A stretch of 60,310 bases of DNA, filler included, from Sphacelaria rigidula (lineage: Eukaryota), in NCBI GenBank assembly GCA_964200075.2. It is 3 parts of 3 records of this genome, joined end to end, with 100 filler letters (N's around TTAATTAATTAA, not from the genome) between each part and the next. Parts side by side here need not be neighbours in the genome. Positions count along the whole stretch, not along the records: positions 40,279 to 60,310 come from CAXNAA020000579.1; 2 more parts are not named here. One strand, 5' to 3'. The notes under the pieces were generated by a model. The model had not been told where the DNA came from, did not search any database, and worked only from the letters and a program-made list of their open reading frames with translations. The position numbers and the translations under genes are program-made. This document shows, in pieces, positions 7,075 through 60,310 of this stretch; within the stretch, counting starts at the first letter, position 1, and the number at the start of each line of letters is the position of its first letter.

Positions 7075-10000
7075 ATGGCGGATCAAGACAGTGCAGTGGA
7101 AGAAGTGAGGGCGCTGCTTGAGGCGCAGACAAGGATCTCGGTAGAAAGGCTGTAACGTGTCGAGGCTGCCCAGGAAAGCAGAGGCGGACGAAGTGAGGGG
7201 TCCGCCAGTGGAGATCAACCATCGTATCTTGATGGTGCTACGGGCGCGGAGCAGATAAAGTCTGGTTCCGGTCGTAGAGGTGAAGTCACCACCGATAACC
7301 TGCTGCCAACTGTCAGTGAGGTTGGGATTGCAGGAGGTGGTACTTTTACACTGAGTCCTAGGGGGAAAAGCAACAATAAAACTGATGTTCCCAAGTTAGG
7401 AGGAAGTGTTGATTTTTCTTTATGGAAAAAAGCGAGTTGAAGATTTCGCTTCGTCCACCGATTGTATGCACGCCTTCAGTACGGCTATTGATGTGCCCGT
7501 AGGTGACCCCTGAGTTAGTTCACAGTTTTTGGTTGACCAAGATTTTAGTGAGACAAGTACAAGAAGAACATGTATTGCTTGGACGTGTGTGACAGAGAGT
7601 ATCACGGGCCGTGAATTATCAAGTAGGGTGTTTGACACAAACTCCCCTGGTGCAGGCTGGCGCTTCTTATATAACTGGTTTCTCCCGAGAACTCTCTCGG
7701 AAAAATCGAAGTGGAAACGCCTTATCAACGAGGTACGGGTGGAGAAAAAGGAAGATCCGATGATGTTTTTCGCGCGCGTGGGTAAGATTGTGGGTGCACT
7801 AGTATCATAGGGGGTACATATGCCTGTAGAAGATGTTAACCTCAACATAGTTGAGGTACTCACAAGTGACTACGAGTACGAACCGCGCGCAATTTTGTAC
7901 AGATACGCACCCCGGCAGAGGTACACGCTATTGTATGGCAGAGATACACGTTATGTCAAGGAATGGTACGAAGAACCGTGACGTCGGACAAGCTCTCGTT
8001 ATGAGCGAGTCCGCCCGCCAAAATCGCAATCAAGATGGCGCCAAGAGTGATGCCAAAGGTGGTGGGGGTATTTCCAGTGGTAGTGCAGCAGATAAGAACG
8101 ACCAGACTAGCAGTACCAAAACCGTAGGGAAGAAGTATGACGGTATGCAAAACAAGTGTCATCGTTGCTTAGAGCCAGGACACCAAGGGTTTGACTGTAT
8201 CGCACACGTTATCCCAGCCCCAAAGAAATCACAGGGTGGCTATCATAGCGTGTTTGTCGATTGGTATGCAACAAAGTAAGGAGGGTGCGGTGGGAGAGCG
8301 TAATAGCAGTAATGACGGTATTGAAGAGTGAATAGCTGATAGTTGAGCAACATTTCATATTACTAAATCGGCTGAATTGCTCCGTGACGTGCACAGCCAT
8401 CAGAGGGCAAAGTTAAGATCGGTAATAATACTCTCATCGACATTGAGTGTTATGGGTCGTTGACTGGAGTTTTCCCCAACAAGGGTGAAGGAGTAACAGT
8501 GAGGCTTGAAAAGGTCGCATACGTACCCGACTTATCTTTAAACCTATTATCAGTAGTGGCTGCGCACACACGGGGAGTAGGCTTCTCGACCGATGATTCC
8601 GACAAGAGTGTGACCCTACTGGATGGGCGTCTTAGGTTTTGGAGTGATGGATCTGGATACTCAACGTATGGTCGAAGGAGTGACCCTGATGATGACTACG
8701 TCCCCTATCTCTTGTTGGTTCACGAGTCTGTTGAACATTCCGTGCAACGCGACCCCCCTGTTCCCCCGGCGTTTCCTGTTATATTCCCCCGCAGCGCTGA
8801 CTCACGCGAGACTGCGATAGACATCAACGTTTTTCACTGCGTACAGGGACATGCCAATGAATTTCTTTTGAGAGGAGCAGCAAAATCGGTAGGAATAGAG
8901 TTACTGAGCATCTTGGAACCGTGTAGAGAATGTTTTTAGGCAAAGGGGCACACGAAACCAATCGCAAACAGCACGGAATCCCGTGCTTCACAGAAGCAAA
9001 GAAGAGTTTTCGTTGATTTTAGCGGTCCCAAGAAAACTCCTTCATTGCTAGGAAAGAAGTATGTAATGATGGTGAAGGACGATTTTACCCGGTATGCACG
9101 AGTGTATTTTCTCCAGCGGAAGTTCGATACCGCTGACGCTTTCAGGAAGTTTTTGGCTGATGTACGTGCGGATGGTGTACCTTCGGAAGTGGTAATAGCT
9201 AAATCTGACGACAGGGGGGAGTTTTTCGATGGTAATTTTGAAGGCGTGTGTAGGCACTACTGTATCAAGCAGGGATTCACCAGGGCGAAGTGTCCGGAAC
9301 TGAATGGCGCTGCCAAGAGAGCTTTAGGTATCATTCAAAACGCCGCACATGTTGCTCGCATCCGAGCCCCCATCCTCTTCCCACATGTCGAGCTATCACC
9401 ATCGCAGACCCTCTGGGCTGAGGCAATATATATTGGGCGTGTCACGCCCTGATTCACACCTCGACGACGTCCAACCCAGGGAACAAGTCGCCGTACGAGA
9501 TGTGGTACGGTAAGGCAGCACCTGCATCGCCACACCCGTTTCTTCGTCCGGGTTATTGCCGACCAACAAAGTCGTTCCCCAAGTGCGAGAGTAGCTTCTA
9601 CCTCAGGCTCGGCATCGACCACCCCCTCGATTCCTTGCGGATGCTGACGCGGGCAAATAAGTAGTGGAGACAAGGGACATCACCTGGGAGGTGCCGCCGA
9701 TCTGGTGGTACCGCCGGTACAGCTGCAGCAGCCAGCTTCGCCGCAGTTGGCGGGAGCGTCGGAGCTGGGAGGGACGTTACAGCCAGGAGGAACATCAGAG
9801 CTGGGAGAAGCTCCGGAGACAGGAGGGCGACATGATTTCGATTCTGCTCCACCAGCTCTATTACCGCCACTGGGGAGAGGAATATCCTTTAAGCGTCGAG
9901 TGACATTTCCAGCGAAGAGCGCAGACCATGGTGGTGAAGGTAGGCGAGGTTTTCTTCGAGATGAAAATCAGCCGGCCCCCGACAATACAACTGGTTCTTT

Positions 10001-11898
10001 AGGTGTTTATTTGCCATTGGTGAGTAGTGAGCCGTTTGACGACGGCAAACTCTCAGTGGAGAGGAGCGATTCGTCTTCATTGGACGAAAGTGCTCCAGTT
10101 CCCACGGCAGCGCGGACTGCGGCGCGGCAACTCGAGTCAAATTTGGTTGGAACTGGAAATGACGAGGAGCTTGGGCGAACCTGAGCGCAGACCCGAGCGA
10201 TCAATCAAGAAGAATCTGGGCTCGTGAACATGTTAAGGCCCGATGAAAGGGGGGGAATGATATATGACCTGCTGGCGGTACAGGAGGTTACCCGTAAGCA
10301 AGGCGAGCTCCCTAAATGCCTTATCAAGGAATCGGGGTCGGAGCCGTTGCCATTCCATGCGGCGTCTTCATTACAATACTCGGATGTGTGGATGGAGGCG
10401 ATGAGGATAGAGTTCGATGGGCTTATGGGTGCCGGAACGTTCGCGGACGTGACTGACATTCCAGAGGGGTGCAACATTGTGGGCGCGAAGTGGGTGTATA
10501 AGTAGAAAAGTGATTCGCATGGTATGGTTGACCGGGCGAACGCCGGTATGGTAGCTATGGGGTATAGTCAGGTACAGGGAGTAGACTACTTTGACACATT
10601 TTCCCCTACGGTATCCGCGACGTCGAACAGGTTAGTGGCGGCTATGACATGTATGCTAGACTGGGATTTGAGGTACTTGGGTGTAGACCAGGCCTTCATT
10701 CAGTCGAAGTTGGACACCGACATCTACTGGCGCCTGCTCTCCGGTTGTGAATCAGTATCTGGTAAGGTAGTGCGCCTGAGCCAGGCCTTGTACGGTTCGA
10801 AGCAGGGTGTTCGTGCATGGTATCAACTGTTGTCGTCAACCCTAGTGGAGTGTGGTTTCGAGCAACACTTAGTATATCCCTGCGTGTTCCGCCTGAGGGT
10901 TGCTGAAGACGCTGTGGCGATGGTGGTCTTTCATGTGGACGATATCATGATAGCAGCTACTGAGGAAGTTACTAAGGTCGGTGCACTCAATCAGATATTT
11001 CCCATTGAACATTTCGTGGAGGTAGAGCAATGCATGGGGAGTGAGTACAAAAAGGACCGGGGGAAAGTTACTTTGGAGATTTCACAAACCTAATTCATTA
11101 TGAGTGTGCTATGTCGTTTTGACGTCTCGAAGATAAGCTGAATTCCCGCTACCCCTTCTCTAGACCTCAGGCATGCAAGCGAGGAGGAGACCGTGGTGGA
11201 TGTGCCTTTTCGTGAGATCGTGGGGAGCTTGATATGGATAGCGAACCAGACGAGGCCCGATATCGCGAATGTAGTTTGGGCAATCGCTCATTTTTCTCAT
11301 GAACCCAAGTTGACTCACTACAGGGCGGCACAGAAGATACTCGAGTATTTGAATGCTCCGTCGGATTTAGGGTTACTTTTCAAGAGGAGTAACAACTTGG
11401 GATGTATTTAGTTGGAGTTTGATTTGGATACGTACGTTGAAGCAGACTACGCCCATAGGGCAGAGGATCGCCGTTCCGTTTTCGGTGTAGCTATTTGCTG
11501 TTTTACTGTGGAGGTACGCAAGTGTCAGGGTTCTTCAGGACGCACAATGCGCCACCCTATTTACTACTGAGGCAGAGTGTGTAGAAATGGCAGACGGTGT
11601 CAAGCAGGCCCTGTATGTGAGGGGGGTTCTGAGGTTCCTCATGCCCAGTTTGGGGTCGAAAAGCGTTGGCGTTGTTGAGAACAACAACGGGCCGATAGAC
11701 TTAGCTGAAAATCTCTTGCGCTCGTCCAACAGCAAACACATTGATAAACGATATCATTTTCTTCGGGAGTTGGTTGCTAGTGGTGACATATCCGTGAAGT
11801 ATCTTCAATCAGAAGAACAGCATGCAGATATTCCAACCAAAGTCATTGATGAAGAGAATTTCGGAAGGCACCGTGATTTTCTCTTAGGCAGGATCTAG
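7075..11898 (+). pseudogene. Disrupted Copia gag-pol polyprotein
   Basis: Broken into ORFs 7529-7810, 7851-8279, 8460-8939, 9045-9452, 10224-10505, 10524-11093, 11193-11411 and 11587-11898 by in-frame stops and frameshifts; motifs as listed for the element. Confidence 0.92.
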
Positions 11899-19194: not shown

Positions 19195-19612
19195 GAAGGG
19201 TGGGTCGAGTAGAGTATACTCAATACTCAGTATTTTTGAAGAGTCATACTTTTAGTACTCGAAGTTTGAATGGAATATTTGAGGTCGTACTCAACCTACT
19301 CAATGATTCGAGTAGAGTATTTGACATCATACTCAAGTCTACTCGAAGCTTGAGTATTGAGGTCATACTCAAGTGATACTCAATATTTATGTAGCGTACT
19401 TGAGGTCGTACTCGATATACTCAAAGTTCGAGTAGAGTATTGGAGGCCGTACCCAACGTACTCGACATTTGAGTAGAGTATTCGAGACCATACTCAACCT
19501 ACTCGAAATTTGAGTTGAGTATTCGAGACCATACTCAACCTACTCAAAAATTGAGTAGAGTATTTGAGGCCGTACTCGACATACTCACAATTTGAGTAGA
19601 ATATTTGAGGCC
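19195..19612. repeat. hAT-MITE-related terminus followed by a ~41-bp minisatellite
   Basis: Begins AAGGGTGGGTCGAGTAGAGTATACTCAA (same family as the 206-bp MITE TIR), then roughly 9 imperfect tandem copies of ACTCGAAATTTGAGTAGAGTATTCGAGACCATACTCAACCT. Confidence 0.75.
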
Positions 19613-20041: not shown

Positions 20042-20141
20042 NNNNNNNNNNNNNNNNNNNNNNNNNNNNNNNNNNNNNNNNNNNNTTAATTAATTAANNN
20101 NNNNNNNNNNNNNNNNNNNNNNNNNNNNNNNNNNNNNNNNN
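20042..20141. other. Artificial contig spacer (assembly gap)
   Basis: Exactly 100 bp: N-run, TTAATTAATTAA (stops in all six frames), N-run. Confidence 0.97.
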
Positions 20142-40178: not shown

Positions 40179-40278
40179 NNNNNNNNNNNNNNNNNNNNNN
40201 NNNNNNNNNNNNNNNNNNNNNNTTAATTAATTAANNNNNNNNNNNNNNNNNNNNNNNNNNNNNNNNNNNNNNNNNNNN
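40179..40278. other. Artificial contig spacer (assembly gap)
   Basis: 100 bp N..TTAATTAATTAA..N, same design as 20042-20141. Confidence 0.97.
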
Positions 40279-41680: not shown

Positions 41681-42139
41681 TCAAAGTTTACTAGTGTCTG
41701 CTTCAGAAATGGTCTCGCGAGAGCTTGTTCCACGGCTAAAGTTGTTTTGGTTCACAGTGAGATACCCCCGCACCTTATTGTCGTTCAGAACATCCTTCTG
41801 TACGGCCGACCGGTTCCGCCGCGGCACATTGCTGTCGTCCACGACAAAGTCCATCGACAACGACTTCTTGAAGTCAATGGGTGTTGGCAGGCAGTGGACA
41901 ACACGCATGATGAGGAAATTGTTCTCAGCACCACTCGCGCACGATACCATCTCCAACGTTTCCTCCACCATTATGGGGCCAATGTTCGAGGGAAGGCTCC
42001 CGCCAGGAGCAGAAAGGGTAACGCCGAAGTCGCTCTTAACAAACGGGGTTTCCCGAGGAGATGCGCTGTCCAGGAGGATCCTCGGCCTGTTTTCAACTGT
42101 GAACGAGGCGGGAAAATCGCAAGCAATGATCGAACACAT
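41681..42139 (-). CDS. ZU5-like domain coding segment, probably the C-terminal part of the LRR-array gene (possibly pseudogenised)
   Basis: FGVTLSAPGGSLP and VVHCLPTPIDFKKSLSMDF match the two ZU5 signature stretches (GVxLxIPxGAL; PVVxCxPxGxxFxKPVxL). GYLTVNQNNFSRG sits where the ZU5 'HFS' motif is expected. Same strand as, and downstream of, the LRR exons; flanking frames contain stops. Confidence 0.6.
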   Translation of the reverse strand: MCSIIACDFPASFTVENRPRILLDSASPRETPFVKSDFGVTLSAPGGSLPSNIGPIMVEETLEMVSCASGAENNFLIMRVVHCLPTPIDFKKSLSMDFVVDDSNVPRRNRSAVQKDVLNDNKVRGYLTVNQNNFSRGTSSRETISEADTSKL

Positions 42140-43410: not shown

Positions 43411-46400
43411 CACTCGGCTGCTTTCCCTCGAGGTTGCTCAGGTTTGAGCCAACGAGCTTTTCTAGTCCCGGCGGAATGGCACCTGTGGTGACGACACGCG
43501 ATAGTTGCGATGTGCGGTGGAATCTCAGGACAGCAACCCACAACACACACCCACGATCTAAGTCCTCTACTCACGCACAGGCAGTAGCGCCGTTTCACAG
43601 ACCGGACGAGGCCGTGGTCTAAAATATCGATCAACAATACGCGTGTTGCATGCACGTCCATGACGACATGACTCATAACCCTACGGCGTCCAGGCACGGT
43701 TTGTTCTCGATCATCGCATTTCACGACATGACCTGTCCCGTGTCTCACCCCTCAGCTGATTCCCTTGGAGATTGAGAGATTCCAGCGAACGGCACTTCCC
43801 CAGCTCCGGCGGAATGACACCTGTGGCGGCGACAAGCGATAGTACAAATGTGTGGTGGTTCTCAGGGGACAAGAAACCACAGCAAGCACGCAAGCTTCAT
43901 GTCCCCTACACACGCCTTGGCAGGACTACTCTTCTACAAGCCGGGCGGCCCTGTGCTCTACCAGGTTCATCAAGCATGCTCGCCAGCACAACGTGCCCGC
44001 ACTGGTGCTCGTGGGAAGGTCTCTCCAAGAGGTACATGAGCTATCGAGTGCTCCAATCACAACACGCGAATGGCGTGCACGTCCACGGCAACGTGACTCA
44101 TAACCATCGGCCGCCCAAGCACGGTTTCGCTTGTCGACCATCGCGCTTCACCACATGACCTGTCCCGCGTCTCACCACTCAGTTGATTCCCCTGAAGATT
44201 GAGGGATCTCATCAAACGGCACTCCCCCAGCTCCGACGGAATGGCACCTATGGCGGAGACACGCGATACAACAAATGTGTAATGGAGGCTCGGGAGAGGA
44301 ACCCACAACTAACACGGAAGCTTCACGTTCCCTACTCCCGCGCTTGGAGAGCTACTCTTGACAACAACCCCGGCAGACCCGTGCTCCACCAGGCCCAGTC
44401 AGCATGCCCGCCGGTACAACGTGCTCGCACTGGTGCTCGTGGCAAGTGCTCTCTACCAGTGCGTCCCGTGTTTCGTTCCCCTACTCTGCAGGCTGCTGCT
44501 CGCTACGAAGGGATACTGGTGGACAGGTAAACGAGCGTGTGACCCGACAGCGCTGCCTCACTTCGAGCCAACGAGGCGACCAGTCCCCACGCAGTGTTGG
44601 CACTCCGACGACTGTCATCACACACACATGCGCACGTGCTTTGACTGTCTACTTCTGTCACGGAGACTGGACCAAGAGGTACATGAGCTATCGAGTCCCC
44701 CGATCACGACACGCGTGTTGCGTGCGCGTCCACGAAGACATGATTCATAACCCCAAAACGACCAGGCACGGTTTCGCTTCTCCACCATCGCGCTTCACCA
44801 CATGACCCGTCCCGCGTCTCACCACTCAGTTGATTCCCCTGAAGATTGACGGACCTAAGCTCACGGCATCTCCCCAGCTCCGGCGGAATGACACCTGTGG
44901 CGGAGACACGCGATACAACAAATGTGTTATGGAGTCTGGGGAGAGGCACCCACAACTGACACGGAAGCTCCACGTTCCCTACCCACGCGCTGGCAGGACA
45001 ACGCTTTCACCAGCCGGGCGGACCCGTGCTCCACCAGGCCCCGTCAGCATGCTCGCCGGTACAACGTGCTCGCACTGGTGCTCGTTGCAAGTGCTCTCTA
45101 CCAGTGCGTCCCGTGTTTCGTTACCCTACTCTGCAGCCCGCTGCTCGCTACGAAGAGATACTGGTGGACAGGTAAACGAGCGTGTGACCCGACAGCGCTG
45201 TCTCACTACGAGCCAACGAGGCGACCAGTCCCCACGCAGTGTTGGCACTGCGACGATTGTCATCACACACACATGCGCACGTGCTTCTATTGTCTACTTC
45301 TGTCACGGAGACTGGACCAAGAGATACATGAGCTATCGAGTCCTCCGATCACGACACGCGTGTTGCGTGTGCGTCCACGAAGACATGATTCATAACCCCA
45401 CACCGTCCAGGCATGGTTTCGCTTCTCGACCATCGCGCTTCACCACATGACCCGTCCCGCGTCTCACCACTCAGTTGATTCCCCTGGAGTTCGACGACTT
45501 CTAGCGAACCGCACTCCCCCAGCTCCGGCGGAATGGCACCTGTGGCGGAGACACGCGATACAACAAATGTGTAATGGAGGCTCCAGAGAGGAACCCACAA
45601 CTAACACGCAAGCTTCACGTTCCCTACCAACGCGCTGGCAGGAAAACGGTTTTGTCAGCCGGGCGGACCCGTGCTCCACCAGGCCCGGTCAGCATGCTCG
45701 CCGGTACAACGTCCTCGCACTGGTGCTCGTTGCAAGTGCTCTCTACCAGTGCGTCCCGTGTTTCGTTCCCCTACTCTGCAGCCTGCTGCTCGCTACGAAG
45801 GGATACTGGTGGACAGGTAAACGAGCGTGTGACCCGACAGCGCTATCTCACTTCGAGCCAACGAGGCGACCAGTTCCCACGCAGTGTTGGCACTCCGACG
45901 ACTGTCATCACACACACATGCGCACGTGCTTTGACTGTCTACTTCTGTCACGGAGACTGGACCAAGAGGTACATGAGCTATCGAGTCCTCCGATCACGAC
46001 ACGTGAATGGCGTGTGCGTCCACGAAGACATGATTCATAACCCCACACCGCCCAAGCACGGTTTCGCTCCTCCACCATCGCGCATCACCACATGACCCGT
46101 CCCGCGTCTCACCACTCAGTTGATTCCCCTGAAGATTGACGGACCTTAGCTCACGGCACTCCCCCAGCTCCGACGGAATGGCACCTGTGGTGGCGACACA
46201 CGATACAACAAATGTGTAATGGAGGCTCGGGAGAGGAACCCACAACTAACACGGAAGCTTTACGCCCCCTACTCACGCGCTTGCAGAGCTACTCTTGACA
46301 ACAACCCGGGCGGACCCGTGCTCTACCAGGCCCAGTCAGCATGCCCGCCGGTACAACGTGCTTGCACTGGTGCTCGTGGCAAGTGCTCTCTACCAGTGTA

Positions 46401-49400
46401 TCCCGTGTTTCGTTCCCCTACTCTGCAGGCCGCTGCTCGCTACGAAGGGATACTGGTGGACAGGTAAACGAGCGTGTGACCCGACAGCGCTATCTCACTT
46501 CGAGCCAACGAGGCGACCAGTTCCCACGCAGTGTTGGCACTTCACCGAATATCACACACACATGCACACGTGCTTCTATTGTCTACTTCCGTCACGGGGA
46601 CTGGACCAAGAGGTACATGAGCTATCGAGTCCTCCGATCACAACAAGCGTGTTGCGTGCGCGTCCGCGCAGCCATAATTCATAACCCGACACTGCACAGG
46701 CACGGTTTCGCTTTTCGACCATCGCGCTTCACCACATGACCCGTCCCGCGTCTCACCCCTTAATTGATTCCCCTGAAGATTGACGGACCTTAGCTTACGG
46801 CACTTCCCCAGCTCCGGCGGAATGGCACCTGTGGCGAAGACACGCGAAGCCATAACTGTGTTATGGAGTCTCGGGAGAGGAACCCACAACTAACACGAAA
46901 CATCCACGTTCCCTACCCACGCGCTGGCAGGGCAACTCTCTACAAGCCGGTCGGACCCGTGCTCCACCAGGCCCAGTCAGCATGCCCGCCGGTACAACGT
47001 GCTCGCACTGGTGCTCGTGGCAAGTGCTCTCTACCAGTGCGTCCCGTGTTCCGTTCCCTCTACTCTGCAGGCTGCTGCTCGCTACGAAGGGATACTGGTG
47101 GACAGGTAAACGAGCGTGTGACCCGACAGCGCTGTCTCACTTCGAGCCAACGAGGCGACCAGTACCCACGCAGTGTTGGCACTCCGCCGACTGTCATCAC
47201 ACACACATGCGCAGGTGCTTCTACTGTCTACTTCTGTCACGGAGACTGGACCAAGAGGTACATGAGCTATCGAGTCCTCCGATCACGACACGCGTGTTGC
47301 GTGCGCCTCCACGAAGACATGATTCATAACCCCACACCGCCCAAGCACGGTTCCGACTCTCGACCATCGCGCTCCACCACATGACCCGTCCCGCGTCTCA
47401 CCACTCAGTTGATTCCCCTGGAGTTCGACGATTTCTAGCGAACCGCACTCCCCCAGCTCCGGCGGAATGACACCTGTGGCAACGACACGCGATACAACGA
47501 ATGTGTCATGGAGTCTCCGGAGAGGAACCCACAACTGACACGGAAGCTCCACGTTCCCTACCAACGCGATGGCAGGACAACTCTTGACAACAACCCGGGC
47601 GGACCCGTGCTCCGCCAGGCCCAGTCAGCATGCCCGCCGGTACAACGTGCTCGCACTGGTGCTCGTGGCAAGTGCTCTCTACCAGTGCGTCCCGTGTTTC
47701 GTTACCCTACTCTGCAGCCTGCTGCTCGCTACGAAGGGATACTGGTGGACAGGTAAACGAGCGTGTGACCCGACAGCGCTGTCTCACTACGAGCCAACGA
47801 GGCGACCAGTCCCCACGCAGTGTTGGCACTCCGCCGACTGTCATCACACACACATGCGCACGTGCTTCTAATGTCTACTTCTGTCACGGAGACTGGACCA
47901 AAAGGTACATGAGCTATCGAGTCCTCCCATCACGACACGCCTGATGCGTGCGCGTCCGTGCAGACATGATTCATAACCCGACACTGCACAGGCCCGGTTT
48001 CGTTTCTCGACCATCGCGCTTCACCACATGACCCGTCCCGCGTCTCACCACTCAGTTGATTGCCCTGGAGTTCGACGATTTCTAGCCAACCGCACTTCCC
48101 CAGCTCCGGCGGAATGGCACCTGTGGCGGAGACACGCGATACAACAAATGTGCAATGGAGTCTCGGGAGAGGAACCCACAACTAACACGCAAGCTACACG
48201 TTCCCTACCAACGCGCTGGCAGGAAAACGGTTTTGTCAGCCGGGCGGACCCGTGCTCCACCAGGCCCGGTCAGCATGCTCGCCGGTACAACGTGCTCGCA
48301 CTGGTGCTCGTGGCAAGTGCTCTCTACCAGTGCGTCCCGTGTTTCGTTCCCCTTCTCATCAGCCTGCTGCTCGCTACGGAGGGATACTGGTGGACAGGTA
48401 ATGAGCGTGTGACCCGACAGCGCTGTCTCACTACGAGCCAACGAGGCGACCAGTCCCCACGCAGTGTTGGCACTCCCACGATTGTCATCACATACACATG
48501 CGCACTTGCTTCAATTGTCTACTTCTGTCACGGAGCCTGGACCAAGAGGTACATGAGCTATCGAGTCCTCCGATCACGACACGCGTGTTCCCTGCGCATC
48601 CGTGAAGCCATGATTTATAACCCCACACCGCCCAAGCACGGTTTCGCTTCTCGACCATCGCGCTTCACCATATGACCCGTCCCGCGTCTCACCACTCAGT
48701 TGATTCCCCTGGAGATTAAAAGACCTAAGCCATCGGCATTTCCCCAGCTCCGGCGGGATGGCACCTGTGGCGGAGACACGCGATACAACAAATGTGTTAT
48801 GGAGTCTCGGGAGAGGAACCCACAGATTACACGTAATTTCCACGTTCCCTACCAACGCGCTGGCAGGACAACTCTCTACAAGCCGGTCGGACCCGTGCTC
48901 CACCAGGCCCAGTCAGCATGCTCGCCGGTACAACGTGCTCGCACTGGTGCTCGTGGCAAGTGCTCTCCACCAGTGGGTCCCGTGTTTCGTTCCCCTACTC
49001 TGCAGCCTGCTGCTCGCTACGAATGGATACTGGTGGACAGGTAAACGAGCGTGTGACCCGACAGCGCTGTCTCACTTCGAGCCAACGAGGCGACCAGTCC
49101 CCACGCAGTGTTGGCACTCCGACGACTGTCATCACACACACATGCGCAGGTGCTTCTATTGTCTACTTCTGTCAGGAAGACAAGACTAACAGGTGCATGA
49201 GCTATCGAGTCCCCCGATCACGACACGCGTGTTGCGTGCGCGTCCACGAGGACATGATTCATAACCCCACCCGCACAGGCACCGTTTCGCTTCTCGACCA
49301 TCGCGCTTCACCACATGACCCGTCCCGCGTCTCACCACTCAGTTGATTGCCCTGGAGATTGACGATTTCTAGCGAACCGCACTTCCCCAGCTCCGGCGGA

Positions 49401-52400
49401 ATGGCACCTGTGGCAGCGACACGCAATGGGGCGGATGTGTGGTGGACACCTCGGGAAAGCAACCCACAACTTACACGCAAGCTCCACGTTCCCTACCCAC
49501 GCGCTGGCAGGACAACTCTTTCACCAGCCGGGCGGACCCGTGCTCCACCAGGCCCAGTCAGCATGCTCGCCGGTACAACGTGCTTGCACTGGTGCTCGTG
49601 GCAAGTGCTCTCTACCAGTGCGTCCCGTGTCTCGTTCCCACAGTCTGCGGCCTGCTGCTCGCTACGAAGGGATACTGGTGGACAGGTAAACGAGCGTGTG
49701 ACCCGACAGCGCTGTTTTACTTCGAGCCAACGAGGCGACCAGTCCCCACGCAGTGTTGGCACTCCGCCGACTGTCATCACACACACATGCGCACGTGCTT
49801 TGACTGTCTACTTCTGTCACGGAGACTGGACAGAAAGGTACATGAGCTTTGGGGTCCTCCGATCACGACACGCGTGGTGCGTGCGCGTCCACGAAGACAT
49901 GATTCATTACCCCACACCACCCAGGCACGGTTTCGCTTCTCGACCATCGCGCTTCACGACATGACTCATCCGCGTCTCACCACTCAGTTGATTCCCCTGG
50001 AGATCGACGGAATGTAGCATAACGCACCCCCCCAGCTCCGGCGGAATGACACCTGTGGCGGAGACACGCTATACAACAAATGTGTTATCGAGTCTCGGGA
50101 GAGGAACCCACAACTTACACGCAAGCTCCACGTTCCCTACCCACGCGCTGGCAGGACAACTCTGTACAAGCCGGGCGGACCCGTGCTTTACCAGGCCCAG
50201 TCAGCAAGCTCGCCGGTACAACGTGCTCGCACTGGTGCTCGTGGCAAGTGCTTTCCACCGGTGCGTCCCATGTTCCGTTCCCCTACTCTGCAGATTGCTG
50301 CTCGCTACGAAGAGATACTGGTGGACAGGTAAACGAGCGTGTGACCCGACAGCGCTGTCTCACTTCGAGCCAACGAGGCGACCAGTCCCCACGCAGTGTT
50401 GGCACTCCGACGACTGTCATCACACACACATGCGCACGTGCTTCTCTTGTCTGCTTCTGTCACGGAGACTGGACCGAGAGGTACACGAGATATCGAGTCC
50501 TCCGATCACGACACGCGTGTTGCGTGCGCGTCCACGAAGACATGATTCATAACCTCAAACTGCCCAGGCATGGTTTCGCTTCTCGACCATCGCGCTTCAC
50601 CACATGACCCGTCCCGCGTCTCACCACTCAGTTGATTCCCCTGAAGTTGGACGATTTCTAGCGAACCGCACTCCCCCAGCTCCGGCGGAATGGCACCTGT
50701 GGCAGCGACACGCGATACAACAAATGTGTTATGGAGTCTCGGGAGAGGAACCCACAACTGACACGCAAGCTCGACGCTCCCCATCCACGCGCTGGCAGGA
50801 CAACTCTGTACAAGCCGGTCGGACCCGTGCTCCACCAGGCCCAGTCAGCATGCCCGCCAGTACAACGTGCTCACATTGGTGCTCCTGGCAAGTGCTTTCT
50901 ACCAGTGCGTCCCGTGTTTCGTTCCCCTACTCTGCAGGCTGCTGCTCGCAACGAATGGATATTGGTGTAAACGAGCGTGTGACCCGACAATGCTGTCTCA
51001 CTTCGAGCCAACGAGGCGACCAGTCCCCACGCAGTGTTGGCACTCCGCCGACTGTCATCACACACACATGCGCATATGCTTCTATTGTCTACTTTTGTCA
51101 CGGAGACTGGACCAAGTGGTACATGAGCTATCGAATCCTCCGATCACGACACGCGTGTTGCGTGCGCGTCCATGATGACATGATTCATAACCGAGTCATC
51201 CTACGATAGGGGGGGTGGGGTGTTTCGGGCCATTCGTTGCTCGAAATTTCGAGTGAGATCGTCGTTGAATGCCGCAACGGTTGTTCGGACGAGCTTCTTG
51301 TGGATCAATAACGCTCATCCATACTGTCTGATACCGATTGGAACCAAATACTAAAGCACCGCAAGTGTGGAAGGATGTCTGACACACTTATGAGCCTTTT
51401 CTTTCTTGCAACCAAATACCCCCCCCTTTCGTAGGATGGCTTAACCCCACACCGCCCAAGCAAGGTTTCGCTTTTCGACCATCGCGCTTCACCACATGAC
51501 CCGTCCCGCGTCCCACCACTCAGTTGATTCCCCTGGAGTTCGACGATTTCTAGCCAACCGCACTTCCCCAGCTCCGGCGGAATGGCACCTGTGACGGAGA
51601 CACGCGATACAACAGATGTGTTATGGGCGTCTCGAGAGAGGAAACCACAACTAACACGCAAGCTACACGTTCCCTACCGACGCGCTGGCAGGACAACTCT
51701 CTACAAGCCGGTCGGACCCGTGCTCCACCAGGCCCAGTCAGCATCCCCGCCGGTACAACGTGCTCGCACTGGTGCTCGTGGCAAGTGCTCTCTACCAGTG
51801 CGTCCCGTGTTTCGTTACCCTACTCTGCAGCCTGCTGCTCGCTACGGAGGGATACTGGTGGACAGGTAAACGAGCGTGTGACCCGACAGCGCTGTCTCAC
51901 TTCGAGCCAACGAGGCGACCAGTCCCCACGCAGTGTTGGCACTCCGCCGACTGTCATCACACACACATGCGAGGGTGCTTCTATTGTCTGCTTCTGTCAC
52001 GGAGACGGGACCAAGAGGTACTAAGCTATCGAGTCCTCCGATCACGACACGCGTGTTGCGTGCGCGTCCGTGAAGCCATGACTCATAACCCACACCGCCC
52101 AAGCACCGTTCCGTTTCTCGACCATCGCGCTTCACCACATGACCCGTCCCGCGTCTCACCACTCAGTTGATTCCCCTGGAGATTGACGGACCTCAGCCAA
52201 CGGCACTCCCCCAGCTCCGGCGGAATGGCACCTGTGGCGGAGACACGCGATACAACAAATGTGTAATGGAGTCTCGGGAGAGAAAACCACAACCAACACG
52301 CAAGCTCCACGTTCCCTACCAACGCGCTGGCAGGACAACTCTCTACAAGCCGGTCGGACCCGTGCTTTACAAGGCCCAGTCAGCATGCCCGCCGGTACAA

Positions 52401-55400
52401 CGTCCTCGCACTGGTGCTCGTGGCAAGTGCTCTCTACCAGTGCGTCCCGTGTTTCGTTACCCTACTCTGCAGCCTGCTGCTCGCTACGAAGAGATACTGG
52501 TGGACAGGTAAACGAGCGTGTGACCCGACAGCGCTGTCTCACATCAAGCCAACGAGGCGACCAGTCCCCACGGAGTGTTGGCACTCCGACGATTGTCATC
52601 ACACACACATGCGCAGGTGCTTCTATTGTCTGCTTCTGTCACAGAGACGGGACCAAGAGGTACATGAGCTATCGAGTCCTCCGATCACGACACGCGTGTT
52701 GAGTGCGCGTCCGTGAAGACACGATTCATAACTCCACACCGCCCAGGCACGGTTTCGCTTCTCGACCATCGCGCTTCATCACATGACCCGTCCCGCGTCT
52801 CACCACTCAGTTGATTCCCCTGGAGATTGACGAATACCAACATAACGCATTTCTCCAGCTCAGGGGGAATGGCACCTGTGGCAGCGACACGAGACAAAAC
52901 AAATGTGTGGTGGGCGCCTTGGGGGAGCAACCCACAACTAACACGAGAGCTCCACGTTTACTACCAACGCGCTGGCAGGACAACTTTCTACAAGCCGGGC
53001 GGACCCGTGCTTCACCAGGCCCAGTCAGCATGCCCGCCGGTACAACGTGCTCGCACTGGTGTTCGTGGCAAGTGCTCTCTACCAGTGCGTCCCGTGTTTC
53101 GTTCCCCTACTCTGCAGCCTGCTGCTCGCTACGAAGGGATACTGGTGGACAGGTAAACGAGCGTGTGACCCGACAGCGCCGTTTCACTTCGAGCCAACGA
53201 GGCGACCGTTCCCCAAGGAGTGTTGGCACTGCGCCGACTGTCATCACACACACATGCGCACGTGCTTCTATTGTCACGGAAACTGGACCAAGAGATACAT
53301 GAGCTATCGAGTCCTCCGATCACGACACGCGTGTTGCGTGCGCCTCCACGAAGACATGACTCATAACCCCACACCGCCCAAGCACGGTTTCGCTTCTCGA
53401 CCATCGCGCTTCATCACATGACCCGTCCCGCGTCTCACCACTCAGTTGATTCCCCTGTAGATTGACGGAATGTAGCTCAACACACTGCCCTAGCTCCGGC
53501 GGAATGGCACCTGTGGCAGCGACACGCGATACAACAAATGTGTTATGGAGTCTCGAGAGAGGAAACCACAACCAACACGCAAGCTCCACGTTGCCTATCC
53601 GCGCGCTGGCAGGACAACTCTCTACAAGCCGGTCGGACCCGTGCTCCACCAGGCCCAGTCAGCATGCCCGCCGGTACAACGTGCTCGCACTGGTGCTCGA
53701 GGCGAATGCTCTCCACCAGTGCGTCCCGTGTTTCGTTCCCCTACTCTGCAGGCTGCTGCTCGCTACGAAGGGATACTGGTGGACAGGTAAACGAGCGTGT
53801 GACCCGACAGCGCTGTCTCACTTCGAGCCAACAAGGCGACCAGTCCCCACGGAATGTTGGCACTCCGCCGATTGTCATCACACACACATGCGCACGTGCT
53901 TCAATTGTCCACTTCAGTCACGGAGACTGGACCAAGAGGTACATGAGCTCTTGAGTCACGACACGCGTGTTGCGTGCGCGTCCACGAGAACATGATTTAT
54001 AACCCCACACCCCCCAGGCACGGTTTCGCTTCTCGACCATCGCGCTTCACCACATGACCCGTCCCGCGTCTCACCACTCAGTTGATTGCCCTGGAGTTCG
54101 ACGATTTCTAGCGAACCGCATTCCCCCAGCTCCGGCGGAATGACACCTGTGGGAACGACACGCGATACAAGGAATGTGTCATGGAGTCTCGGGAGAGGAA
54201 ACCACAACTAACACGCAAGCTCCACGTTGCCTATCCACGCGCTGGCAGGGCAACTCTCTACAAGCCGGGCAGACCCGTGCTTCACCAGGCCCAGTCAGCA
54301 TGCCCGCCGGTACAACGTGCTTGCACTGGTGCTCGTGGCAAGTGCTCTCTACCAGTGCGTCCCGTGTTTCGTTCCCCCTACTCTGCAGCCTGCTGCTCGC
54401 TACGAAGGGATACTGGTGGACAGGTAAACGAGCGTGTGACCCGACAGCGCTGTCTCACTTCGAGCCAACGAGGCGACCAGTCCCCACGCAGTGTTGGCAC
54501 TCCGCCGACTGCCATCACACACACATGCGCGGGTGCTTCTATTGTCTACTTCTGTCACGGAGACTGGACCAAAAAGGTACATGAGCTATCGACTCCCCCG
54601 ATCACGACACGCGTGTTGCGTGCGCGTCCGTGAAGACATGATTCATAACCCCACACCGCCCAAGCACGGTTTCGCTTCTCGACCATCGCGCTTCACCACA
54701 TGACCCGTCCCGCGTCTCACCACTCAGTTGATTCCCCTGGAGATTGACGGACCTTAGCTCACGGCACTTCCTCAGCTCCGGCGGAATGGCACCTGTGGCG
54801 AAGACACGCGATACAACAAATGTGTTATGGAGTCTCGGGAGAGGCACCCACAACCAACACGCAAGCTACACGTTTCCTACCAACGCGCTGGCAGGACAAC
54901 TCTTCTACAAGCCGGTCGGACCCGTGCTCTACCAGGCCCAGTAAGCATGCCCGCCGGTACAACGTGCTCGCACTGGTGCTCGTGGCGAACGCTCTCTACC
55001 AGTGGGTCCCGTGTTTCGTTCCCCTACTCTGCAGCCTGCTGGTCGGTACTTACGGATACTGGTGGACAGGCAAACGAGCGTGTGACCCGACAGCGCTGTC
55101 TCACATCAAGCCAACGAGGCGACCGGTCCCCACGCAGTGTTGGCACTCCACCGATTGTCATCATACACACATGCGCAGGTGCTTCTCTTGTCTACTTCTG
55201 TCACGGAGACTGGACCAAGAGGTACATGAGCTATCGAGTCCCCCGATCACGACACGCGTGTTGCGTGCGCGTCCACGAAGACATGATTCATAACCCCACA
55301 CGCACAGGCACCGTTTCGCTCCTCGACCATCGCGCTTCACCACATGACCCGTCCCGCGTCTCACCACTCAGTTGATTCCCCTGGAGTTCGACGATTTCTA

Positions 55401-56725
55401 GCGAACCGCACTTCCCCAGCTCCGGCGGAATAGCACCTGGGGCAGCGACACGCGATACAACAAATGTGTTGTGGAGTCTCGGGAGAGGAACCCACAACTA
55501 ACACGCAAGCTCCACGTCCCCCATCCACGCGCTGGCAGGACAACTCTCTACAAGCCGGTCGGACCCGTGCTCCACCAGGCCTAGTCAGCATGCCCGCCGG
55601 TACAACGTGCTTGCACTGGTGCTCGTGGCAAGTGCTCTCTACCAGTGCGTCCCGTGTCTCGTTCACCTACTCTGCAGCCTGCTGCTCGCTACGGAGGGAT
55701 ACTGGTGGACAGGTAAACGAGCGTGTGACCCGACAGCGCTGTCTCACTTCGAACTAACGAGGCGACCGGTCCCCACGCAGTGTTGGCACTCCGACGGTTG
55801 TCATCACACACACATGCGCACGTGCTTTGACTGTCTCTTTCTGTCACGGAGACTGGACAAAAAGGTACATGAGCTATCGAGTCCTCCGATCACGACACGC
55901 GTGTTGCGTGCGCGTCCACGAAGACATGATTTATAACCCCACACCACCCAGGCACGGTTTCGCTCCTCGACCATCGCGCTTCACCACATGACCCGTCCCG
56001 CGTCTCACCACTCAGTTGATTCCCTTGAAGATTGACGGACCTTAGCTCACAGCACTCCCCCAGCTCCGGCGGAATGGCCCCTGTGGCGGAGACACGCGAA
56101 GCCATAACTGTGTTATGGAGTCTCGGGAGAGGAAACCACAACTAACACGCAATTTCCACGTTCCCTACCAACGCGCTGGCAGGACAACTCTTCTACAAGC
56201 CGGTCGGACCCGTGCTCCACCAGGCCCAGTCAGCATGCCCGCCGGTACAACGTGCTCGCACTGGTGCTCGTGGCAAGTGCTCTCTACCAGTGCGTCCCGT
56301 GTTTCGTTCCCCTACTCTGCAGCCTGCTGCTCGCTACGAAGGGATACTGGTGGACAGGTAAACGAGCGTGTGCCCCGGAAGCGCTGTCTCACATCAAGCC
56401 AACGAGGCGACCAGTCCCCACGCAGTGTTGGCACTCCGCCGACTGTCATCATACACACATGCACACGTGCTTCCATTGTCTACTTCTGTCACGGAGACTG
56501 GACCAAGAGGTACATGAGCTATCGAGTCCTCCGATCACGACACGCGTGTTGCGTGCGCGTCCACGAAGACATGATTCATAACCCCACACCGCCCAAGCAC
56601 GGTTTCGCTCCTCGACCATCGCGCTTCACCACATGACCCGTCCCGCGTCTCACCACTCAGTTGATTCCCCTGGAGTTCGACGATTTCTAGCGAACCGCAC
56701 TCCCCCAGCTTCGGTGGAATGGCAC
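43411..56725 (-). CDS. LRR domain encoded one repeat per exon: 22 exons of 72 bp, consensus GAIPPELGxCxxLxxVxLQGNQLS
   Basis: Exons at 56654-56725, 56009-56080, 55365-55436, 54721-54792, 54075-54146, 53439-53510, 52804-52875, 52160-52231, 51517-51588, 50625-50696, 49981-50052, 49336-49407, 48693-48764, 48049-48120, 47402-47473, 46757-46828, 46113-46184, 45468-45539, 44823-44894, 44176-44247, 43749-43820 and 43411-43482 (divergent). Each is bounded by YAG| and |GTGAG (GTGGG once), is phase 1/1, stop-free, and fits the 24-aa plant-specific LRR class. No start exon found in the window. Confidence 0.93.
51193..51442. mobile_element. 250-bp MITE inserted in one intron of the LRR array
   Basis: TIRs GAGTCATCCTACGATAGGGGGG / CCCCCCTTTCGTAGGATGGCTT; duplicates AACC (51189-51192 / 51443-51446) of the empty-site consensus TGATTCATAACCCCACACC seen in sister units. 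Confidence 0.92.
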
Positions 56726-57169: not shown

Positions 57170-57235
57170 CATTCAGTCGATTCCCCTGAAGATTGACGGC
57201 TTTTATCATACTCACTCCCCAAGCCACGTTTGCTC
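57170..57235 (-). pseudogene. Broken 23rd LRR exon at the 5' edge of the array
   Basis: Retains GTCAATCTTCAGGGGAATCGACTGAATG (VNLQGNRLN), but the donor is GAGAG instead of GTGAG and the GAIPPEL half with the acceptor is deleted. Confidence 0.8.
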
Positions 57236-57639
57236 AAGCCGGTGGAACCCGTTGTCTACCAGGCTCATTCAGCATGCCCGCCGGTACAACACACATATAC
57301 ACATCAATGAGGGGACTCATGGGGCCAATTTGCGCAGGTGACGGCTGATACACACGTTATCCGCACTCAGTACCCAACAGCCCCAGGTTACACGGGCAGT
57401 GGGCAACGTACATAACGTGCGTATGAAGTTGGTAGCACCGGCCTCATGGTCGATGACGTACAACGCGAATCAGCGGAGCAGCGTGCACATTTCTAGTTCA
57501 TTGAACACTGCAGTTACATGCTCATGCTGCCTGAAACTTGTGTGCATCGCAGAATAATACGAGTAAAATGTACTAGCGGCAACCAGGTATGTCCAAGTCG
57601 CGACGACGTCCAAGTACGCCCAGTCGGGATGCGTTATTG

Positions 57640-58010: not shown

Positions 58011-59086
58011 TGAAATTCGCGGCTAAACCTGGACATGACTTCGTCCGAGTCGCGACTCGGATATGGCTTCATCCTTTCAGCAATGCAGTTGTTTGTCTTG
58101 TTCAATACCTGCTGCCTAGTGACAATCATAGCGAGTACGATATCAATCGGGCACGCGAACAGCACAGGCAGCAACGGATCTTCTCGGCCGTATCATAAAC
58201 CCTTGATGGAAATACTGGCTTGTGTTGTGTGGTACCGTCCTCGAGACAGACCGACTACCGTCGCGCGGACAGCAGTGTATGGCAGAGGTTGCCCCGTGGT
58301 GGGTAGACCACTTGCTTCTGCAGCAGAAGATGAAAAAAGACATGATTTTCAGGGGCTCTTATGCGGCCGGCACAGAATAAAAAGCACAGTCTCTTCTCAA
58401 AGCAGAGAGCTGGAACGAACGAAGGAGAGAGATTGCGTTTGGCACCCAGTTGGGTTAGTCCAAGCATATTCAATCCTGGAACGAGAAGCCAAATCCATAC
58501 ACGTACGTGAGATCGGATCGTATTATCAAGCTCAACATCGCTACTGCTGACGCGGTAGCCTTGCCAGCTCTTAGCGTAGATTAGCTGCAATCCCATGCAC
58601 AAGATATCTCTTCAGCTTATGGGGCCTAAATACTCTGCTAGAGTGTCTTCCACTGATAAATCATGGCACCAGGCTTTCTCCAGCAATATCCTACTTGAAA
58701 CGTGTAGCCTCTGCCCGAGGATCTGGACAAGAGGGCTTCCAACGAGGTACTCCTCCAGTATCACTGGCCTCGTGCTCGACAAGTCCTTGCTTATAACTTG
58801 TTATTATTGCGGGGTGATCCTAAACAGATCACGAGCCAGGCAGCAAGGGGCCACACAGAAAAGGGCCATCAATGCAGGATCCTGTCCCCTGCCACTGCTC
58901 CAATCATGCACGGGATTATACTGAAACCCTACGGCGTGGTATTATTTGGTTACAGCACCGTCAAAGCGTGTTCAAGACAAACGAACGAGCTTGACAACCA
59001 ACCAACAAAAACCAAGGCGAAATCGCATGTGGCAGATCACAAAGAAAAACCATACTCCAACGCTAATTTACTTGTCAGCGCCTCAA

Positions 59087-60310
59087 TCACAGTCTACGCA
59101 GTTCCTTCAAAACAAATTCAGGCGCAGAAGAATGAATCTTGCGAAGAGAATCCCACGTACGTTTTCCAGCACCGAACCCATCCCAACCGACCAAAACAAT
59201 GACATCGTCATTGCCATCTTCAGCGACGTGCACCAAAGCATTCATCCGACATTCACCTTGAGCATACGAATGCTGAAATACATCTTTTACCTTCGCAGTG
59301 ATGTGTAACTGCGAGTCAGCATAGAAACGCAAATGAGCGACGTGGGCCAAGTGAACGGCGCCAGAAACAATGTTCTGCACCGAATACACGGGAGCGGATC
59401 GGCTCCGATCACTCGCCACCGACCTGTCCATGTGGACATCAACTCGGGCGTCACGCCTTGCCTACGAATACGGCCATACAAGACGAAATCTCCCACTGCG
59501 AACTTGGGTAACGCAGCCTAGCCCTGAGCAAGCTTGCGTTTGGTTTCGCAAGACACCGCGGTGGCAGCTTGTACTTCGTTACACAAACCGCACTTGCTCG
59601 TGAACCACGCCTCGAACCTTGTCACGCAACGTATCAGCATCCATAACATCGACGTTCGACTCGCCGCAAGTGACGGAATCCAGCGCGGAGAACTCTGTAC
59701 GCGGCGCACGCCCAAACATCACATAATACGGAGTGTTACGGTACAGTTCACGAAAAAGAAGTGTTCAACGCCCACTGAGCGGCTGGCAAAATATCAACCC
59801 CTTCAGACCCCGGCGGTCTTTGCTCCGACATGATGGACCGCAACGCACGAACAACCTCTTTTCAACATGCCTTCACAAGCACCATTCGACCAGGGGGTAT
59901 ACACAACAGCAAATTGGTGTTGCACCTTGAGCGCGACGCTCAGCTGCGCGATCACTCGATTCTTGAAGTGCGTCGCGGTATCACTAACCCACACACGCCG
60001 CACCCCCAAAGTCTTGCATCGATGGAGCAAGTGCTTAGCCGTAACCTTGACGGTCCAAGCCTCGGTCGGCTCCAACCAAACGGAATTGAACAAAGCATCC
60101 ATGATAACCAAACCATATCGAAAACTAGCCTCGTCAGGCCAACCATTAGCACCTTCAGGTCCGCTACTTCCGACGTACATAAAATCAAAGACCACAACTT
60201 CAGCTGGCGCTGTACCATGCACAGTATCGCCATACGGACGAGGTACCATCGCACCAGCACGAGTGTCTACACAAGGCAAACACTGGCGAACGAACTCGCG
60301 AACGTGGGAA
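59087..60310 (-). mobile_element. Ty3/Gypsy retrotransposon remnant: integrase plus C-terminal chromodomain, frameshifted; runs off the window end
   Basis: CxxC zinc-binding end, integrase core (VVVFDFMYVG, WVSDTATHFKN, YTPWSNGACE), GPY/F-like STWTGRWRV, HVAHLRFY and chromodomain-like VLVGWDGFGAGKRTWDSL. Confidence 0.92.

Follow-up and report, generated by a model that had tools for sequence, protein, structure and literature searches.

The window analysed here is a 60,310-nt stretch of the genome of the brown alga Sphacelaria rigidula (assembly GCA_964200075.2; 244 Mb in 27,214 contigs), composed of three unrelated contigs, namely C577 (1-20041), a middle contig and C579 (CAXNAA020000579.1; 40279-60310), which are separated by N linkers at 20042-20141 and 40179-40278. 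Wholly within C579, a tandem array of leucine-rich repeat (LRR) exons occupies 43749..56725 on the minus strand and comprises 21 units, each consisting of a 72-nt LRR exon and a homologous intron of approximately 572 nt. The units recur with a period of approximately 645 bp (spacing 635-647 bp, save where one unit carries a 248-bp insertion and another is shortened), and their introns are approximately 91% identical from unit to unit. Tandem Repeats Finder misses the array, the period of which exceeds 500. Downstream, the gene continues through a divergent last LRR exon (43411..43482, minus strand) into a 323-nt exon with a ZU5-like sequence (41774..42096, minus strand), which encodes the first part of that domain and keeps the reading frame of the LRR exons.

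The array exons combine a conserved scaffold with a short variable block at exon nt 30-50 (codons 11-17), present in every one of them. All 21 are flanked by AG and GT, have an open frame and fit the register GxxPxxLxxxxxLxxLxLxxNxLx, with P4, L7, L18, N21 and L23 invariant, L13 present in 20 and V16 in 18; C10 and LQGNQL, described beforehand as invariant or nearly so, are likewise found in 21/21. No indels occur in the exons, compared with 10 gap openings in the introns. Variation is concentrated at codons 9, 11, 12, 14, 15 and 17, the residue sets of which match the earlier lists exactly, with lesser variation at residues 2, 5, 6, 8, 13, 16 and 24. These six codons do not vary independently but co-vary as haplotypes that define two or three exon classes. 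The acidic class A (G[SW]LEIV[EN]; 10 exons) includes W01 (56654..56725; GSLEIVE), W03 (55365..55436), W05 (54075..54146), W09 (51517..51588), W10 (50625..50696), W12 (49336..49407), W14 (48049..48120), W15 (47402..47473) and W18 (45468..45539), together with W21 (43749..43820), a divergent A/B mosaic. The basic class B (R[EWK]LRSVN; eight exons) comprises W02 (56009..56080), W04 (54721..54792), W08 (52160..52231), W13 (48693..48764), W16 (46757..46828), W17 (46113..46184), W19 (44823..44894) and the divergent W20 (44176..44247). Class C (V[EM]L[HV][SF]V[ND]) accounts for the other three, W06 (53439..53510), W07 (52804..52875) and W11 (49981..50052). All lie on the minus strand; a six-frame scan found no opposite-strand copies of the LRR exon. 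One degenerate, 5'-truncated copy (57170..57241) is present on the same strand and lacks both the AG acceptor and the GT donor.

The variable block is the most diverse part of the unit. Nucleotide diversity (π), computed over 19 full units (shortened unit 20 and the terminal unit being excluded) and 572 intron columns, reaches 0.414 across the six codons, whereas the remaining 17 codons have 0.066 and the introns 0.088. No other 21-nt window of the unit is as diverse as codons 11-17 (π 0.334, roughly four times the intron average, compared with 0.199 in the best intron window), and in a best-six-codons test that allows for post hoc choice the exon reaches 0.481 against an intron maximum of 0.35, the exon value being attained by none of 503 overlapping pseudo-exons. 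Minor alleles carried by at least five units make up 10/27 of those in the block and 15/294 of those in the introns. The central claim of the preliminary description, that variation in a few exon codons exceeds that of the surrounding introns, is thus borne out, and since per-site diversity at these codons is clearly above the intron level, something appears to preserve variation there. Its accompanying remark that long intron blocks are invariant or nearly so holds with respect to low diversity but not long invariance, as 331/572 intron columns are invariant but no stretch without any variation exceeds 11 nt. Contig C23079 (1-5975) carries a second array, whose 10 exons fall into the same classes; it repeats the peak (block 0.352 vs an intron maximum of 0.262; nine units), although it is not an independent replicate, being as close to the window array as the units are to one another. 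Its first three units have in common a shortened intron (515-516 bp), a feature also seen in the dead unit at the head of the window array, and it may represent a paralogue, the other haplotype or a further part of the same gene.

Divergence between classes A and B is largely confined to the block. It amounts to 0.497 there, compared with 0.072 over the remaining exon and 0.087 for introns, whereas the corresponding values within classes are 0.094, 0.064 and 0.083. The A/B haplotypes show no linkage to the flanking introns; mean r² falls from 0.42 at 1-5 nt to 0.25 at 6-15 nt and 0.08 at 16-30 nt, remaining flat beyond, and at least 40 recombination intervals are detected per 644-nt unit. Intron distance is independent of position in the array. 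This loss of linkage within 30 nt, together with the lack of a positional effect, points to short-tract gene conversion among all units, the pattern being the one expected of that process.

The gene to which the array belongs can be followed to its stop codon. Splice joints of the GT..AG type were observed in runs X6 and X7, two runs from one study whose RNA label is a tool's guess, no run being on record as RNA. Four distinct adjacent joints were seen, connecting W06 with W07 (X6 only), W16 with W17, W21 with the last LRR exon (43482-43411), and that exon with position 42096, the last three in both X6 and X7; these joints are absent from runs X3 and X4. The last LRR exon, 72 nt long and differing at 25/72 nt from the nearest array exon, is thus spliced in, and is probably a capping repeat. 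The loose end at 41774 continues in frame, with an exact 30-nt match, into a terminal exon on contig C9343, the only terminal exon found in the assembly; it spans 261 codons, contains WHFS and ends in a stop. No Pfam family was detected in its 261-aa product, nor was any death-fold domain. The gene therefore encodes 22 LRRs, a ZU5-like domain and a β domain; it lacks Roc, and no death domain was detected. An identity as an LRR-ROCO gene was rejected on the basis that splicing leads from the last LRR exon through the ZU5-like exon into the stop-ending exon of 261 codons; of the 43 Roc matches in the genome, none falls on C579 or C9343.

Evidence on the 5' end is less direct. An LRRNT-type first-exon candidate is located on contig C12131, with 2/28 nt mismatches relative to an RNA-like loose end, and may derive from a paralogue or another allele. 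Its translation starts at Met, and inspection by eye revealed no obvious signal peptide, which suggests that the protein is cytoplasmic. Upstream of the array lie the dead exon copy and, on the minus strand at 58900-60310, an integrase remnant (rve, E 1.2e-4, below the cut-off). Two connections in RNA-like contigs, 54143-56651 and 51587-50625, were considered as exon skipping and rejected, given that exon starts and ends are common to several units and that adjacent pairs such as W18-W19 explain 54143-56651. Loose ends in X7 at 54148 and 54794 comprise first-exon-like sequence joined to an exon start of the W05 type, and the terminus of an exon, reading VVNLEGNQLS, that neither assembled array contains; exon skipping, strain differences or unassembled units are possible sources of these X7 ends.

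The identity of the downstream exon was approached through its homologues. The 106-aa ZU5-like product yields no match by a word-based homologue search or in the ESM Atlas, and no significant match came from searching Protein Data Bank sequences with profiles A1 and A2. A profile built from the window exon and three relatives in the genome matched 98 proteins, and 8 of the 33 matches scanned pass the Pfam ZU5 cut-off, while the genome's own exons score below it or not at all. Named homologues, obtained for 4 of the 10 looked up, are all from Ectocarpus or Scytosiphon, in keeping with a brown-algal host; the DNA is also present in an algae metagenome. The Ectocarpus homologue P0002 was folded on a 24-row alignment (mean predicted local distance difference test score 59.7, with 70-92 across the greater part of ZU5). 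The best structural matches of the resulting model are ankyrin ZU5 domains (Z 9.5 with a root-mean-square deviation of 3.9 over 126 aligned residues, and Z 9.0), followed by GAIN domains (8.6); top Foldseek matches are ankyrin and UNC5b, and Atlas ZU5/UPA/FIIND clusters match at 0.91-0.94. The model thus predicts a ZU5 fold in P0002. An HF[S/T/C] motif occurs in 16/24 aligned rows, which are all 16 that cover the site, the other eight being short N-part fragments, and in the model the HF/S-type motif is placed between strands 202-210 and 213-221, ahead of the final ZU5 strand. A β-rich second domain is predicted after ZU5, with generic Ig-like folds as its best matches (Z < 8).

Related modules occur in several other contexts. 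A copy of the ZU5-like exon, 79% identical, is located at C20697:707-1024; on C7080 and C19263 the module follows exons that by eye read like a CaMK-type kinase, and in related proteins it is preceded by TPR, ankyrin or LRR repeats. This variety of upstream partners suggests a mobile C-terminal module. Pairwise BLAST of the Scytosiphon homologue P0048 against the C9343 exon was not significant, and the matches to P0048 in an LRR search were uninformative, being generic LRR proteins, for the most part unnamed.

Taken as a whole, the locus is interpreted, with a probability of approximately 0.55, as a brown-algal LRR–ZU5-like gene whose units are homogenised by conversion while selection keeps versions of codons 11-17 for the binding surface of a sensor. 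Short-tract conversion likely homogenises the 21 one-repeat exons together with their introns, and selection likely retains two or three versions of codons 11-17. Scaffold codons are under purifying selection (pN, the proportion of nonsynonymous differences, 0.022; pS, that of synonymous differences, 0.21), whereas the block has pN 0.38 vs pS 0.25, and the majority A and B codons differ by nine nonsynonymous changes and one synonymous change (Fisher p = 0.094). Comparable data come from exon 5 of the red and green opsins (Fawcett and Innan 2011, PMC3924837), where introns have been homogenised and a short coding block stays divergent, although two genes are involved in that case and 21 exon units of a single gene in this one. 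In a peak of divergence under conversion, as described in that study, linked synonymous sites also rise, which blunts dN/dS, and the present data fit this signature.

Several results weigh against this interpretation. The ratio dN/dS (ω), predicted beforehand to exceed 1, is 1.04 for codons 11-17 (likelihood-ratio test statistic, LRT, 0.01) and 1.31 for the six codons (LRT 0.46), neither of which is distinguishable from 1. The comparison of models M1a and M2a, made with a custom implementation and fixed relative branch lengths, is not significant on exon trees (LRT 1.58 for 21 exons, 2.94 for 31 exons); an LRT of 11.3, obtained on the whole-unit tree only, was discarded as a likely recombination artefact, that tree being wrong for the exon because of conversion. 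Synonymous sites in the block are elevated too (between-class pS 0.33). The published selected sites 15, 17, 19 and 20 have pN 0.224 vs pS 0.247, and their mutation count (5 vs 4.1 expected) is not above the intron rate. After the choice of six codons, the minimum-mutation excess of the exon is modest, being equalled or surpassed in 24/503 intron pseudo-exons, so that the signal consists mainly of intermediate-frequency haplotypes rather than many more alleles. Furthermore, the simulations discussed below are simple single-array models with non-independent samples within a run, and the ZU5-like exon of the window itself has no Pfam match, its identity resting on homologues. Selection is accordingly seen as likely to maintain several repeat types, whereas accelerated amino-acid change is not supported by the codon models.

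An ω close to 1 would also be expected if the block had a neutral history, in which an imported diverged block or two founder exons have not yet been erased by mismatch-sensitive conversion, and similar motifs (SLEVL, ELRTL) do occur in other LRR exons of the genome. Neutral conversion-mutation simulations tuned to intron π reproduced that value and the best intron window (about 0.2), but the block value of 0.334 was reached in 0/1536 segments. With mismatch-sensitive conversion, it was reached in 0/864 segments at mean π of 0.113 or below and in 1/96 at mean π 0.147; peaks became frequent in six mismatch-rejection settings, which ran away to mean π 0.23-0.33 and did not match the introns. A seeded divergent block, starting near 0.25 and hence below the observed value, decayed to 0.07-0.11 within four homogenisation times. 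The block is also unlikely to be recent, given that its within-class diversity has reached that of the introns and no linkage to the flanks is left, and in a small genome sample seven other LRR exons differ by at least 26/72 nt overall and at least 8/21 nt in the block. A neutral history is therefore considered unlikely, and the peak is more probably due to selection than to history.

Selection could alternatively act on structure, with acidic A and basic B repeats balancing charge along the stacked solenoid and playing no role in binding varied ligands. The net charge of the block is -1 to -2 in class A (0 in W21) and 0 to +3 in class B, A and B exons occur in roughly equal proportions in each array (A:B:C = 10:8:3 in the window, A:B = 5:5 in C23079), and binding-face sites 19 and 20 are fixed. 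A and B are neighbours 11 times in the window compared with 7.6 expected (p = 0.065), but alternation is not significant over both arrays (p = 0.22) and the second array contains a run of four B exons, so strict A/B alternation is not supported. Charge balance also leaves unexplained the uncharged swaps (S/W/M/L at 12, I/S/F/V at 15) and the third class; though a serious rival, it is judged unlikely. A mosaic produced by collapsed or chimeric repeats, conceivable in so fragmented an assembly and with no run contig spanning the array, so that inner unit order rests on the assembly, is very improbable, as linkage fades at 6-30 nt, below the scale of reads or k-mers, DNA contigs are identical to 43798-44148 and 52803-53022, and RNA-like joints back W06-W07, W16-W17 and the connection of W21 to the last LRR exon. 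Targeted hypermutation or somatic rearrangement, akin to diversity-generating retroelements or the variable lymphocyte receptors of lampreys, would account for variation confined to a short block and was raised as a hypothesis for such exons (PMC3341825), but is scarcely credible given that the block shows no base-specific spectrum (12 change types among 27 changes), the variants are haplotypes common to units and to both arrays, and, according to PMC11378527, somatic recombinants have yet to be reported.

Where the variable codons lie relative to the ligand-binding face bears on the function of the maintained variation. According to the usual LRR convention, which is assumed to apply, variable sites 9, 11 and 12 presumably fall before or outside the xxLxLxx strand. 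Selected sites of this exon type were mapped to positions 15, 17, 19 and 20 of the concave face (Zambounis et al. 2012, PMC3341825), and sites 14, 16, 18 and 19 in a 23-residue count were later described by their authors as consistent with these (Teng et al. 2024, PMC11378527); the mapping to a face used here rests on the published model. Sites 15 and 17 are variable in the window array, whereas 19 and 20 are fixed, with 19 variable in the C23079 array. The preliminary description had proposed diversifying selection on a binding surface; of this, maintained variation is likely and includes sites 15 and 17, while an ω near 1 and the invariance of 19 and 20 speak against the remainder. By analogy, the variable block may act on ligand binding, with the retained A/B versions probably altering the binding surface of a cytoplasmic sensor.

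Both the exon layout and diversifying selection on such exons have already been published for brown algae. The exon is of the brown-algal type I known from genes that include LRR-ROCO (Zambounis et al. 2012, PMC3341825; Teng et al. 2024, PMC11378527), with which it has in common one 24-residue LRR per 72-nt exon, the register GxxPxxLxxxxxLxxLxLxxNxL, the intron phase, variable residues in a conserved scaffold and an LRRNT-type first-exon candidate. The degenerate exon copy nearby may correspond to the non-coding LRR exons, inactivated or on the opposite strand, of some type I loci. In Ectocarpus, 46 type I loci that are neither ROCO nor kinase genes have already been counted. The present gene differs from LRR-ROCO genes, which have Roc-COR, in splicing to a ZU5-like module, and from published type I exons in its variable sites (9, 11, 12, 14, 15 and 17, not 19 and 20) and in its approximately 91% identical introns, which permit an intron-anchored test. 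Among proteins with the module, Scytosiphon promiscuus P0048 (CAM9663634.1; profile E 1.8e-7) likewise has type-I-like LRRs, but these number about seven, are divergent and are accompanied by a long spacer, whereas P0002 of Ectocarpus sp. 12 (CAN0440446.1; E 1.2e-20) is a close relative of the module with no LRR as annotated. A word search of the texts of PMC3341825 and PMC11378527, whose supplements are only partly covered, found neither 'gene conversion' nor 'ZU5', and no paper was found that links ZU5 with Ectocarpus or a brown alga. Within this scope, no published account was found of a brown-algal type I LRR array that ends in a ZU5-like HF/S tail, or of evidence, anchored in introns, that short-tract conversion spares a protected block.

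Other features of the window are repetitive. The 248-bp insertion in the intron after W09 (51194..51441) is MITE-like (MITE, miniature inverted-repeat transposable element), with terminal inverted repeats of approximately 22 nt, and extremely high word depth across DNA runs points to an element of high copy number. In another intron, a 13-nt segment (47824-47836) is 85% complementary to the exon 5' end, is polymorphic between units and is probably a chance occurrence. On C577, a Ty1/copia-type retrotransposon remnant spans several frames at 7851-11090 (a weak zinc knuckle, Pol_BBD, rve and RVT_2), and a 41-bp tandem repeat of approximately nine copies lies at 19256-19612, with many further copies on C9343.

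The closest parallels to the LRR–ZU5-like architecture are found in autoproteolytic proteins with ZU5-UPA (FIIND). In PIDD1, self-cleavage occurs at HF/S, following the ZU5 domains (D'Osualdo et al. 2011, PMC3210808), and like PIDD1, NLRP1 and CARD8, the algal gene places LRRs ahead of a ZU5-like domain that has an HF/S motif, with another β-rich domain beyond it. It differs from them in having one ZU5-like domain, no detected death-fold domain and very low sequence identity, and thus lacks the two ZU5 domains and C-terminal death domain by which PIDD1 orthologues are recognised. By analogy, the predicted protein may cleave itself at HF/S and then signal through its C-terminal UPA-like part. 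More speculatively, and with considerable doubt, brown algae may possess undescribed PIDD1/NLRP1-like cytoplasmic sensors, composed of an LRR array and a self-cleaving ZU5-UPA unit, whose binding repertoire would be reshuffled by short-tract conversion between homogenised units, whose acidic and basic repeats would be balanced by selection and to which alternative exon use, as in the first-exon-like read joined to a W05-type start, may add combinations.

The homologous introns of this array provide a built-in neutral yardstick, and what they point to, short-tract conversion with a protected block, would supply a mechanism for the array variation that the available texts of PMC3341825 and PMC11378527 leave open. 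With a ZU5-like HF/S module in place of the Roc GTPase, a candidate algal immune sensor would have a simple signalling step, self-cleavage.

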